A stretch of DNA of 64,000 nt from Dictyostelium discoideum (GCA_000004695.1 CM000154.2:2272001-2336000); one strand, 5' to 3'. Counted from the first letter of the stretch, positions 49,011 to 53,137 are shown. Notes: generated by a model from the sequence alone, not told the origin. Translations and numbers: made by a program.

Positions 49011-49083
49011 GCCTGGATGGCTCAGTAGGCAGAGCGAGCGGCTGTTAACCGCTAGGTCCATGGTTCGATCCCATGTCTAGGCG
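49011..49083 (+). tRNA. tRNA-Asn (anticodon GTT)
   Basis: Cloverleaf by eye: acceptor gcctgga / tctaggc (one G-U pair), D-arm gctcagtaggcagagc, anticodon stem agcgg / ccgct with loop ctGTTaa, T-arm catggttcgatcccatg, discriminator g. No intron, no encoded CCA. Confidence 0.9.
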
Positions 49084-49161
49084 ATAATTTTTTGGTTTTT
49101 TTAAATTATATAGAAAAAGGATCTAACAAAAGAAAGAAACATATCAGTATCCGTTCAACAA

Positions 49162-49217
49162 AAAAAACCGCACCGCGATCAAGAGGATAAAAAAACCGCA
49201 CCGCGATCAAGAGGATA
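49162..49217 (+). repeat. 2 x 28-bp direct tandem repeat in the retrotransposon 5' UTR (A-module-like)
   Basis: aaaaaaccgcaccgcgatcaagaggata occurs twice in tandem. Confidence 0.8.
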
Positions 49218-49359
49218 CAAGATACACGTGAAAAGTAATTCATCCTTTTCTATCCTTAATCTCGGTCAATTTTAACCAATCTTTCAAAAAAAATCACCAA
49301 TCCACCACGATCTACAGATCTAATTTACCAAATCGCCGATTCAAAGGAATCCCATCGAG

Positions 49360-50253
49360 ATGAATTCCTACGCAGACGCGGCTAAAATGGCCAACCCCTC
49401 CACCCATATGGACGAGGCATCAGAGAACTTCATTAAGGAATTCTCCACAAAAACAGCAGAGATAAAGGAGACCTACCCCAAATTATCAATAGGCCTCAAA
49501 GACATCTCCAAATACTGCGAGACCATATTGAACATGACTGCTCTCTCAACCTACGAGAAAAACAACGGATTCTACCCAATTACACTCGAATTCCCCAAAA
49601 TGGATCTCATGGGGTTAGAAGAAATGAGAAAAACACTCTCAAACTACGATATCCCAATCGACAAGATATACATAGGCAAAGGAACTAGAAAAACGATCCA
49701 CCTGATGATTAAAAACGAACAATCTCTCCTAAATATCATTAGAGATAGAAGCAAATTGGGAACCTTCATCACCTCCAGTAGAGACTACCACGTCCTCACA
49801 GGAAGAGTAAGAATTCCAAGAGAAAAGGCAGGAATAGTGGATGCCCTCATCAAAACTGCCTTTGCAGAAGAAATACCCTATGCAATATACCATACTATAT
49901 ACTCCACCGACCACCTCCTAGTATTCGGTCTAATAGAATGCAAAATAGGCGATCAAATGAAATCTGGCCAACACAATACAGAAATCGCCAACTTTACCAT
50001 CAGAACGGCCACCAAAACCTACTCCTCACAAAAGAAAAATAAGAAAGTAGAGTCAAACAACACGGAAGAACCATTAGAAGANNNNNNNNNNNNNNNNNNN
50101 NNNNNNNNNNNNNNNNNNNNNNNNNNNNNNNNNNNNNNNNNNNNNNNNNNNNNNNNNNNNNNNNNNNNNNNNNNNNNNNNNATTCTACAAGTACCACATC
50201 AACTCAATAGCAAGAATATTGACTATAGCTTTCAACGACCTCCTCACAAATAA
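49360..50253 (+). CDS. Retrotransposon ORF1 (interrupted by an assembly gap)
   Basis: 297-codon ORF MNSYADAAKMANPSTHMDEASENFIKEF... containing a 99-N run (translated as X). GC-richer codons (CCC, CTC, ACC, GGC) unlike the flanking host genes. Confidence 0.6.
   Translation: MNSYADAAKMANPSTHMDEASENFIKEFSTKTAEIKETYPKLSIGLKDISKYCETILNMTALSTYEKNNGFYPITLEFPKMDLMGLEEMRKTLSNYDIPIDKIYIGKGTRKTIHLMIKNEQSLLNIIRDRSKLGTFITSSRDYHVLTGRVRIPREKAGIVDALIKTAFAEEIPYAIYHTIYSTDHLLVFGLIECKIGDQMKSGQHNTEIANFTIRTATKTYSSQKKNKKVESNNTEEPLEXXXXXXXXXXXXXXXXXXXXXXXXXXXXXXXXXXILQVPHQLNSKNIDYSFQRPPHK
50083..50181. other. Assembly gap (99 N) inside the retrotransposon
   Basis: Run of n characters in the sequence. Confidence 1.
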
Positions 50254-52270
50254 GAAAGAAATCCCCACAAAATTCAAAGAAGGAGTAATAACAACAATAT
50301 TCAAAAAAGGAGATGAACTAAACATTTCAAATAGAAGACCAATCACCCTTCTCAATACAGATTACAAAATTTTAAGCAAAATTCTCAACAGTAGATTATT
50401 AGATATCACCAGTAAAATTATCAACAAATTTCAAAACGGCTTTGTTCCAAACAGGTTCATCCAAGACAATATTCAGATCATGAAGGAAGTAATAGAAATA
50501 AGTAACAAAAGAAAGAACAATACACTCATTACCTTTTACGATTTTAACAAAGCATTCGATTCAATCAGCCACAAGAGTATCACAAGAACATTAGAGCATA
50601 TTGGTATCCCCCCAAAATTCACAGCGATCCTACTAAACCTACTCAAAGATACTAAAAACAAAATAAAGATCAACGACTTTTTAGTCAATGGAATAACAAT
50701 CAGAAGAGGAACAAAACAAGGAGACCCAATATCACCAACAATCTTTGCTCTAGTTTTAGAACCACTTCTAATAGATATCATCAATGATAATACAATCAAA
50801 GGCTTCACTCTACCAAATTCCAAATCATTAAAACTCACTGCATTTGCTGACGACATAGCAACATTTACAAACTCCACTGAAGAACTAATGAAAATTAATA
50901 CTAAAATCCAAAAGTACTGCTCAGCAACATCATCATCGTTAAACAAAGAGAAAACAGTAATGATAGCAATAGGAGATAAACCACACGATCTACCATTCCA
51001 AGAGAGTACAGTCCCAGAAAGATATCTTGGCCTCAATTTCACCAAAACAGGTTTAAATTCAAAATACAACACTTTAATCCAAGAAATGAAAAACAATCTA
51101 ATCAAATGGAAATCACAAGCAATAACGATGAAGGCAAAGATGACAATTCTCAAAACATACGTTCTATCCAAATTAACATACCATCAATACATGGATAATC
51201 TAAATGAAGAACAAATTGAGGAAATCAATAACATGACCAGATGGTTCTTATTCTCCTCAGTTAAGAATACATATACAGAAGAGAGAAAATACAAAACTAT
51301 GATGAAAATAGACAGAGCATATGCAGATTGGAAAGAAGGAGGCATAAAATTATGGGATATAGAACTAAGACATATAGCATTCAAAATCTGGTACATGAAC
51401 AGGCTACTCCATAACAACTACAACAACAACAACAATACCTTACAAGAATGGTACATGGAGCAATTAAGTAGAAAAAAAGCCCACACTTCAACCCTCAACG
51501 ATATGTGCAGACACTGGGGTGTATTCAGAGTCAAATTTTACCAAAACCATCCAAAGATAAATGAACTTCCAGACTGTATAAGAAACGACAATGACGAACC
51601 ACTAAAACTGAAAGAAATTTACGAACTCATGATCAAAGACAGACACCCAACACCAAGAAGAACAGAATGGCAGAAGTTATGGGCGGTGAGATACAACACA
51701 GCAATACACAAAGTATTCATAAACATCAACAGCATTTCTCACCAAAAAGGTAGAAACACCCTCTTCAGATTCTTCTCAAGATCACTTCCAGGTATCAACC
51801 ACGAAAGAGACACCAGATGCAAGATCTGTGGCCACCTATTCAGAGACCCTTATTCTCACCTCTTCACTCTATGCCAAGATATCCTAGATATTGAAAAAAC
51901 CATCATATCAACAGTTAACAAATTATCATTCATCAAAATCCACAGATGGTCAATGGATACCTTAGACATATCAAAATACAACAGAACTGAGAGAATCTTC
52001 CCCAATCTCATAGGAATAATAGCACACCAATTATGGAAGATAATCTGTCACAAATTGTTCAACACTGATGAAAGCAAACCAGAGCCAAAATTCGAACAAA
52101 AGGTCATAGAAACAGAATTACTAAATCTCATCGAAACTGAAAAATTCATCACACTAAAGAAAATCAAACACGACGAAGCAATACTAAAAAACACCAATCA
52201 AGATCTTCACAAATACAAATTCAACAAAGCCTGGCAAACCCCAGCAGCTCCGAACCCTCTTCCAATTTAA
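50219..52270 (+). CDS. Retrotransposon ORF2, reverse-transcriptase domain (the N-terminal endonuclease part is probably lost in or upstream of the gap)
   Basis: RT motifs RPITLLNTDYKILSKILNSRL, TFYDFNKAFDSISH, RRGTKQGDPISPTIFALVLEPL, LTAFADDIATF (YXDD-type FADD box). C-terminal Cys/His-rich CKICGHLFRDPYSHLFTLC. Overlaps ORF1 in a different frame. Confidence 0.75.
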   Translation: MTIAFNDLLTNKKEIPTKFKEGVITTIFKKGDELNISNRRPITLLNTDYKILSKILNSRLLDITSKIINKFQNGFVPNRFIQDNIQIMKEVIEISNKRKNNTLITFYDFNKAFDSISHKSITRTLEHIGIPPKFTAILLNLLKDTKNKIKINDFLVNGITIRRGTKQGDPISPTIFALVLEPLLIDIINDNTIKGFTLPNSKSLKLTAFADDIATFTNSTEELMKINTKIQKYCSATSSSLNKEKTVMIAIGDKPHDLPFQESTVPERYLGLNFTKTGLNSKYNTLIQEMKNNLIKWKSQAITMKAKMTILKTYVLSKLTYHQYMDNLNEEQIEEINNMTRWFLFSSVKNTYTEERKYKTMMKIDRAYADWKEGGIKLWDIELRHIAFKIWYMNRLLHNNYNNNNNTLQEWYMEQLSRKKAHTSTLNDMCRHWGVFRVKFYQNHPKINELPDCIRNDNDEPLKLKEIYELMIKDRHPTPRRTEWQKLWAVRYNTAIHKVFININSISHQKGRNTLFRFFSRSLPGINHERDTRCKICGHLFRDPYSHLFTLCQDILDIEKTIISTVNKLSFIKIHRWSMDTLDISKYNRTERIFPNLIGIIAHQLWKIICHKLFNTDESKPEPKFEQKVIETELLNLIETEKFITLKKIKHDEAILKNTNQDLHKYKFNKAWQTPAAPNPLPI

Positions 52271-52275
52271 GTAGT

Positions 52276-52340
<65 letters not shown>

Positions 52341-52498
52341 GTTTAAAAAATTTAATACAATTGAATAATAAAAATAAAACCGTTTAACAAACACCGCCGA
52401 AAAGACACAAGGACATTCCTTGAAGGTCTGATCACAGGTAAAAAAAAAAAAAAGAAAAAGGATCTAAAGAAACTCTGTGTTCCTTGAATACCAGTTGA

Positions 52499-52609
52499 AT
52501 ATAACCAAAAATATCAACATATAACAATATAAAAATTTAAAAATTTAAAAATTTAAAAATGTAATAAAATATAACAATACACCGCTTTTAGGTAAAAAAA
52601 AAAAAAAAA
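52499..52609 (+). mobile_element. 5'-truncated retroelement 3' fragment (about 111 bp ending in A16) flanked by a 16-bp target-site duplication
   Basis: cttgaataccagttga at 52483-52498 and 52610-52625. The insert ends ..aatataacaatacaccgcttttaggt + A16 and resembles the 3' module of the upstream element (..acaccgcc..aggt + An). Confidence 0.55.
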
Positions 52610-53137
52610 CTTGAATACCAGTTGATATTTTAAAAATACAACTATTATTTAATTATTATTCATTTAAAAAAAAAAAAAAAAAAAAAAAAAACAATTACAT
52701 CTTTCTTTTTAAAAAAAACAAAATTATGTAATCTAAACTAAAATAATATCTGTATTTAAATCTAATCAAATAATTGTATTTTAAAAATTAAATATCATAA
52801 ATAAACCTATTAATTACTGTTTACTTCCTTTAATGGAAAAAAAAAATTCAATAGCTTTAATATTATTTCATCCATTATATTATCTATTAAATCTTCCTGA
52901 TACGAATCCTTTCTGATTATTGTTAATAATTTTTGGGAGTATGTATATTAATCTATTATTAATTGCTTTAGATTGAATCAAATAATCTTTTTTTGGAAAC
53001 AACTAATAAAAAAAAAAAAAAAACAAACTTTAATAAAATTTTATTTTTTTTATTTTTATTTTTATTTTTATTGATAAAATTAATTGATCAATAACCAATC
53101 TTTGATTCAAAAAAAAAAAAAGGAAGATAATGATTAT

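Follow-up and report, generated by a model that had tools for sequence, protein, structure and literature searches.

Three TRE3-group insertions from three families behind one tRNA-Asn gene of Dictyostelium discoideum, with one element nested in another across an assembly gap

TRE3 elements are non-long terminal repeat (non-LTR) retrotransposons with two open reading frames (ORFs), which encode an endonuclease of the apurinic/apyrimidinic type (APE), a reverse transcriptase (RT), as well as a zinc finger. The literature on the Dictyostelium discoideum genome already covers the TRE3 families, their preferential insertion behind tRNA genes, and the stacks that successive insertions form. Consensus lengths are given as 5229 bp for TRE3-A, 5279 bp for TRE3-B, and 4734 bp for TRE3-C, with a partial consensus of 1559 bp for TRE3-D. 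Insertion distances of 14–305 bp have been observed, and tandems are known to result from sequential targeting (PMC5006619). An external B box has been reported downstream of approximately 80% of D. discoideum tRNA genes. Here, we analyze a 64,000-nucleotide stretch of D. discoideum DNA (GCA_000004695.1 CM000154.2:2272001-2336000), referred to as a whole as the window, in which a tRNA-Asn(GTT) gene is followed by sequence from TRE3-like elements. These represent three insertions from three families, not two, which we designate X, Y, and Z. We consider it very likely that they entered successively behind this one tRNA gene, with the X copy nested in the Y copy.

The locus shares features with two other tRNA-associated groups and departs from both. 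TRE5-A (DRE) is likewise a non-LTR element with two ORFs, the order APE–RT–zinc finger, and a dependence on tRNA genes. However, TRE5 elements lie ~50 bp upstream of the tRNA gene and are oriented opposite to it (PMC5911963), whereas all three elements in the window lie downstream and in the same orientation as the tRNA. The TRE5-like arrangement was seen in only one comparison locus, L004. At the protein level, the cluster that holds DDB_G0269056, a gene termed 'TRE5-A ORF2' (PMC12405889), is 31–34% identical to the ORF2 products of X, Y, and Z. Skipper-2 (DGLT-P) uses the target zone behind Dictyostelium tRNA genes (PMC5006619), but it has the LTRs, integrase, and chromodomain that the window elements lack. 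No long terminal repeats were found in window 48900–52800, and Pfam searches of the ORFs returned RVT_1 and Exo_endo_phos only.

A preliminary description of the window, made from its sequence, had proposed a tRNA-Asn hot-spot with repeated TRE3-type insertions in the orientation of the tRNA, and this holds. Both ARAGORN and Rfam recover the tRNA-Asn(GTT) gene; the 28-bp repeats, ORF1, RT-containing ORF2, and oligo(A) listed there are each present; and the 111-bp piece is indeed a 5'-truncated insertion between 16-bp repeats. The two direct repeats (T1, 15 bp, and T2, 16 bp) are genuine target-site duplications, forming unique pairs in the 64 kb and standing at element junctions (Table 1). T1 (agaaaaaggatctaa) has two exact copies in the whole window, where the chance expectation at ≤2 mismatches is 0.96, and T2 (cttgaataccagttga) likewise has two, against a chance expectation of 0.05. 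What had to be revised is the anatomy between the T1 copies. The preliminary description made no mention of a 100-N gap between ORF1 and ORF2, and its one near-full-length element proved to be the 5' end of X on one side of that gap and the 3' part of Y on the other. The 15-bp duplication is real, yet it bounds the Y copy only rather than a single whole element, and the count of two insertions rises to three, since X sits inside Y with a 10-bp duplication of its own.

Table 1. Coordinates of the tRNA-Asn gene and the three insertions in the window and in the ungapped locus L008
Feature	Window	Strand	L008	Remarks
tRNA-Asn(GTT) gene	49011..49083	+	9651-9725	Rfam RF00005, 64.3 bits; ARAGORN 49010-49084; followed in L008 by a 27-bp spacer
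Internal B box GGTTCGATCCC of the tRNA-Asn gene	49062-49072			B-box match
RNA polymerase III (Pol III) terminator T-runs (T6, T7)	49088-49093, 49096-49102			3' of the tRNA-Asn gene
T1, left copy (agaaaaaggatctaa)	49112..49126	+	9753	15-bp target-site duplication of Y; only two copies in L008
First 20 bp (caaaagaaagaaacatatca) of the 38-bp stretch of unknown origin	49127..49146	+	9768-9787	Y 5' junction
gtatccgttc, left copy	49147..49156	+	9788	10-bp target-site duplication of nested X; the two copies bracket X exactly
X, 5' part ('aaca', two 28-bp units, 5' untranslated region (UTR), ORF1 start)	49157..50081	+		
X, complete (two 28-bp units, open ORF1 and ORF2, 3' UTR, oligo(A))			9798-15085	
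gtatccgttc, second copy			15086	
Further 8 bp of the stretch of unknown origin				In L008, directly 3' of the second gtatccgttc
Inverted 243-bp piece of Y ORF2			15104-15346	Consensus 3348-3106
100-N assembly gap	50082..50181		10723-17185	Stands for 6,463 bp
Y, from consensus 472 to oligo(A)			15345-19443	Open 1147-aa ORF2
Y, 3' part (ORF2 with RT and CCHC region, 3' module, oligo(A))	50182..52452	+		
T1, right copy (agaaaaaggatctaa)	52453..52467	+	19444	
Spacer between right T1 and first T2				15 bp in L008
T2, left copy (cttgaataccagttga)	52483..52498	+	19474	16-bp duplication
Z fragment (last 95 bp of Z 3' UTR and A16)	52499..52609	+		111 bp between the T2 copies in L008
T2, right copy (cttgaataccagttga)	52610..52625	+	19601	

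The evidence that carries this revision comes from an ungapped version of the locus, L008 (CM142511.1:2353945-2375198, assembly GCA_054883475.1). It was reached via the X ORF1 protein P0206 (KAM9947538.1), whose accession lies ten numbers past that of the strain's biotin ligase; in the window, one ORF is identical to biotin ligase 3 of D. discoideum AX4 (XP_636438.1). L008 aligns to window 40001–50081 and 50182–54270 with 0 mismatches in 14 kb of flanks, the only differences being homopolymer lengths. The gap edges map to L008 10722 and 17186, which gives the extent of the placeholder. The 3.5-kb contig of the Y-type protein P0001 overlaps the window right of the gap only, which means that at least 1.45 kb is missing there. 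In L008, the gap comprises the remainder of X (the end of ORF1, ORF2, 3' UTR, and A-tail), the second gtatccgttc, 8 bp of a stretch of unknown origin, a 243-bp inverted piece of Y ORF2, Y ORF1 in its truncated form, and the initial third of Y ORF2. The distance between the T1 copies is 9,676 bp, and because T1 occurs only twice, the 15-bp duplication must belong to the Y copy. X is nested 20 bp inside the 5' end of that copy, and the window shows only the left copy of its duplication. The Y copy itself consists of consensus 472–4558 plus the inverted segment 3106–3348, with the two pieces joined through a 2-bp overlap. The 38-bp stretch at its 5' junction, interrupted by X, matches none of the reference copies of X, Y, and Z significantly; its first 17 nucleotides (nt) resemble Y ORF2 at window 50503–50522.

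The sequence left of the gap belongs to family X. It begins with two perfect 28-bp units at 49161–49216, followed by ORF1 from 49360, which the gap interrupts. This part matches the X copy in L005 (2759–3651) at 100% over 893 bp and that in L003 at 97.5%, and the predicted ORF1 product is 97% identical to the 416-aa ORF1 of L003. Across copies, X measures 5250–5288 bp and its ORF1 416–417 aa. Its ORF2, which is of the P0010 type, lies in the −1 frame with an 82-nt overlap with ORF1 and without an ATG of its own; in P0033, the ORF1 of the window is fused to an X-type ORF2. Pfam assigns RVT_1 to X ORF2 (1e-33), together with an Exo_endo_phos match that is full-length but weak (18.6 bits, where the cut-off is 24.5). 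X forms the most abundant TRE3-like cluster, with 79 ORF2 and 37 ORF1 members. At other loci, X copies follow a tRNA gene at distances of 52, 66, and 83 bp; they share its orientation and have duplications of 9–11 bp. The copy at the window locus carries two 28-bp 5' units, as against one in the other X copies seen.

Copies of X at separate loci are nearly indistinguishable. Those in L008, L009, L010, and L011 (positions 9830–15079) are 100.000% identical over 5250 bp, the 5250-bp core of the L008 copy is likewise 100.000% identical to the L005 copy, and the L007 copy, over the same range, is 99.98% identical; the ORFs were open wherever they were checked. This identity points to a very recent amplification in the laboratory-strain lineage. 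Two further observations concern individual X copies. In the L007 copy (9813–9840), the 28-bp unit is separated from the copy's own duplication by 9 nt (aagagatca), and these equal the duplication plus 5' flank of the L010 copy (9820–9830); the match looks like a 5' transduction, which would make the L010 copy a source element. In L009 (9700–9830), an X copy lies behind a tRNA-like 3' end (gggggatcgaatccc, then a T-run) for which ARAGORN made no call, and this may be a tRNA variant or pseudogene acting as target.

The sequence right of the gap belongs to family Y. It is 99.6% identical to the Logan contig L001 and 97.9% identical to a full-length Y copy in L002 (2904–7463; GCA_054883475.1), which is 4561 bp long and lies 72 bp behind a tRNA-Leu(TAA) gene in the same orientation, with the target-site duplication caatctaaacaaa. 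The full-length element encodes a 291-aa ORF1 (MNFFDKL...) behind a short A-rich 5' UTR and has no 28-bp units, and the left part of the window found no match in it. A blastn match to L002 that ran through the right T1 had suggested T1 as element sequence; we rejected this, as L002 has its own caatctaaacaaa. Y ORF2 is also in the −1 frame, reached via a TAATG overlap. Its fragment in the window matches the C-terminal 683 residues of the 1147-aa APE+RT protein P0001 at 100% identity and contains an RVT_1 match (E 1e-36). For Y ORF2, Pfam reports RVT_1 at 2.6e-36 and Exo_endo_phos (APE) at 1.2e-9, the latter above the cut-off, and CX2C...H...C motifs are seen in the ORF2 of both X and Y, which are 38–40% identical. 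In the window, Y ORF2 stops at 52268–52270, the 3' module spans 52332–52439, and the oligo(A) tail starts at 52440.

This partial ORF has entered the annotation. From its first Met onward, the Y ORF2 fragment equals DDB_G0289107 of AX4, down to two residues not shared by other copies. Together with the biotin ligase 3 identity, this match identifies the window as the AX4 reference. DDB_G0289107 (window 50219–52270), annotated as a 596-aa hypothetical protein, corresponds to the C-terminal half of a TRE3 ORF2. It is truncated because the assembly gap cuts Y ORF2, and the model begins at the first internal Met.

The remaining piece, 111 bp between the T2 copies, derives from family Z. Over its whole length, it matches the final 119 bp of the Z copy in L006 (reference 4543–4661), with 1 mismatch and one 8-bp gap (E 1.6e-46). 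The full-length Z of L006 (3920–8597) measures 4679 bp and lies 29 bp behind a tRNA-Ser gene, in the orientation of that gene, with the duplication cagttccggtctg. Z and Y are sister non-LTR families, their ORF2 products being 59–63% identical, and both are found 27–72 bp behind tRNA genes with duplications of 13–16 bp. The severe 5' truncation of the Z fragment has a parallel in L005 (2325–2425), where a 50-bp Y 3' end plus A20 has the 15-bp duplication tgttatatttgtatt on both sides. Adenine runs in the window occur at 52279–52331 (A53, internal to Y), 52440–52453, and 52594–52609. The first of these exemplifies a feature of both families, in which a variable internal A-run (~24–53 nt) stands at the ORF2 stop or a few bases past it (window 52279–52331 and L002 7324–7355 for Y; L006 8422–8443 for Z), followed by a 3' module of ~105–135 bp and then the true oligo(A) tail. 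It looks as though a second 3' end had been appended to an older one.

Several other readings of the interval between the T1 copies deserve consideration. One is a tandem T1–X–T1–Y–T1, in which the same 15-bp target was reused and the gap conceals the middle T1. TRE elements are known to target one tRNA gene repeatedly (PMC5006619), and a first insertion would leave the left T1 as far from the tRNA as before. Yet L008 contains only two T1 copies and flanks X with gtatccgttc instead, and in other stacks every element has its own nearby site; we regard the tandem as highly improbable.

Equally improbable is a single chimeric element with an X-type 5' end and a Y-type 3' end, produced by RT template switching or inter-element recombination. 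Chimeric TRE3 ORFs do exist. The ORF2 fragment P0006 (ACTFIT_004581, GCA_054883475.1) has 400 N-terminal residues of Z type and a C-terminal part identical to the Y-type ORF2 of the window, the switch falling at the conserved ISHQKGRNTLFRFFSRSLPGIN, which shows that recombinant or template-switched TRE3 copies exist. The 5' junction of the Y copy, with its inverted piece and its sequence of unknown origin, also shows template jumps. Nevertheless, X in L008 is complete, with its own 3' UTR, oligo(A), and duplication, and the body of Y begins after it.

A further reading, that of the preliminary description, is one near-full-length TRE3 element bounded by the 15-bp duplication with a small stretch missing, in favor of which a single pair of 15-bp repeats flanks the whole stretch and ORF1 and the RT-containing ORF share one orientation. 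This is extremely unlikely, given that ORF1 and the 5' UTR are of family X and ORF2 and the 3' UTR of family Y, that full-length Y has a different ORF1 without 28-bp units, and that a whole X element, equipped with an oligo(A) and a duplication of its own, occupies part of the T1–T1 interval in L008. The probability is negligible that A-rich DNA produced the direct repeats by chance and that the ORFs come from a different retroelement class, for example DIRS or Skipper, an alternative raised beforehand: the genome is ~78% A+T and T1 begins with an A-rich stretch, but both repeats are unique pairs in 64 kb placed exactly at element/flank junctions in two assemblies, the ORF2s combine APE with RVT_1 in Pfam without integrase, RNase H, or tyrosine recombinase, and their nearest relatives are Dictyostelium non-LTR ORF2s, the TRE5-A ORF2 cluster being 32–34% identical.

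Under the preferred reading of three successive insertions, the locus would have been built up as follows. A Z copy, cut down to 95 bp of its 3' UTR plus A16, would have entered cttgaataccagttga, at that time 57 bp behind the tRNA gene. A Y copy would next have inserted into agaaaaaggatctaa, 27 bp behind the tRNA, truncated at consensus 472 and headed by the 243-bp inverted piece of its own ORF2 and the 38 bp of unknown origin. Finally, an intact 5.29-kb X (probably TRE3-A) would have landed in gtatccgttc within that stretch of Y, 62 bp behind the tRNA. Z is placed before Y because it would otherwise have landed 4.4 kb from the tRNA, assuming that tRNA proximity is needed, and X is placed after Y because its target lies in the Y junction sequence. 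The identity of X to other copies fits a recent insertion. Each copy bears marks of target-primed reverse transcription, namely oligo(A) abutting the downstream duplication, duplications of 10–16 bp from staggered cuts, and disorder at 5' ends, which here takes the form of 5' truncation in Z and Y and a disordered 5' junction in Y.

The Y and Z copies invite comparison with human L1. Y is 5'-truncated and combines an inverted piece of its own ORF2 with extra nucleotides, and Z is severely 5'-truncated, both of which recall L1 insertions. In classical L1 twin priming, the inverted segment comes from immediately upstream of the direct part. The inverted 243 bp of Y, by contrast, repeats an internal segment that Y also retains in direct orientation, which makes a second template jump the more likely origin.

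Target sites at the locus fall within a narrow zone. T1 begins 27–28 bp behind tRNA-Asn, with the first base past it at 42–43 bp. In the reconstructed empty site, which includes aaattatatagaaaaaggatctaaagaaactctgtgttccttgaataccagttgatatttt, the Y target starts 27 bp and the Z target 57 bp behind the tRNA, and the X target lay at 62 bp when X inserted. All three target sites lie within 27–73 bp, with every element in the tRNA orientation and duplications measuring 15 bp for Y, 10 bp for X, and 16 bp for Z. At six other loci, copies of X, Y, or Z are found 29–83 bp behind tRNA genes, likewise in the tRNA orientation, with duplications of 9–13 bp. L007, L010, and L011 also hold stacks in which a tRNA gene is followed by X and then by an element of family X, Y, or Z, and in these the X copy identical to the others is always the closest to the tRNA. 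A search for an external B box found none near tRNA-Asn, where the internal B box is the sole match to GGTTCGAATCC at ≤2 mismatches and the only promoter element for Pol III close by; the next similar match, at 52899, would be ~350 bp off once the insertions are removed and does not exceed chance expectation. From the literature, we infer that TRE3 reads the TFIIIC/B-box complex, and sites would then be chosen by their distance from the Pol III complex assembled on the B box.

Certain points weigh against this reconstruction. The interior of the AX4 gap is taken from GCA_054883475.1, probably the related laboratory strain AX2-214 as judged indirectly. The order Z, Y, X depends on the assumption that every insertion required tRNA proximity, and the Z fragment is too short for dating. 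The tRNA-Asn gene has no external B box that we could find nearby. The correspondence of X, Y, and Z to published names is provisional. By its length, abundance, and −1-frame ORF2, X is probably TRE3-A (formerly Tdd-3): against the published 5229 bp, X copies of 5250–5288 bp have two ORFs, RVT_1, a Cys/His motif, and oligo(A). TRE3-B (formerly RED), at 5279 bp, fits the length of X almost equally. Z (4679 bp) comes near the published TRE3-C length of 4734 bp, whereas Y (4561 bp) matches neither TRE3-B nor the 1559-bp partial consensus of TRE3-D, so that the 4.56 kb of Y and the 4.68 kb of Z do not both fit published lengths.

The surrounding DNA is host sequence with a G+C content of ~22% across the window. 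The insertions are flanked by a PP4R3/SMEK homolog on the minus strand (43722–47653; EVH1_PP4R3 domain; 1046 aa in L008) and by a two-exon His/Pro-rich gene, also on the minus strand (53208–54112), which is called in L008 at 244 aa. Farther out lie a 1060-aa coiled-coil ORF (54836–58018), a fatty-acyl reductase plus GPAT gene (59741–63669), a CH+GAS2 protein (5328–10094), an IBR/RBR protein (23825–25045), and a minus-strand ORF for a ClpB/Hsp104-type double-AAA protein (27495–29468) within a stretch of raised G+C (34% vs ~22%).

For the reading of genomes, the locus carries a caution: a 100-N placeholder hides 6.5 kb, and two half-elements with one real duplication around them look like a single element. 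Once resolved, it is a textbook case of nested, dated TRE3 insertions with an intact and apparently young X. X landed in sequence that was absent before the Y insertion, yet at 62 bp from the tRNA, compared with 57 bp for Z. Tentatively, and with somewhat less than even confidence, the locus may be viewed as a natural experiment in which distance from a tRNA gene with only an internal B box, and not target sequence, decides where a currently active TRE3 family inserts, leaving an insertion order that can be read with the youngest element nearest the tRNA. It could become a reference case for the target-site rules of TRE3 where the tRNA gene lacks an external B box.

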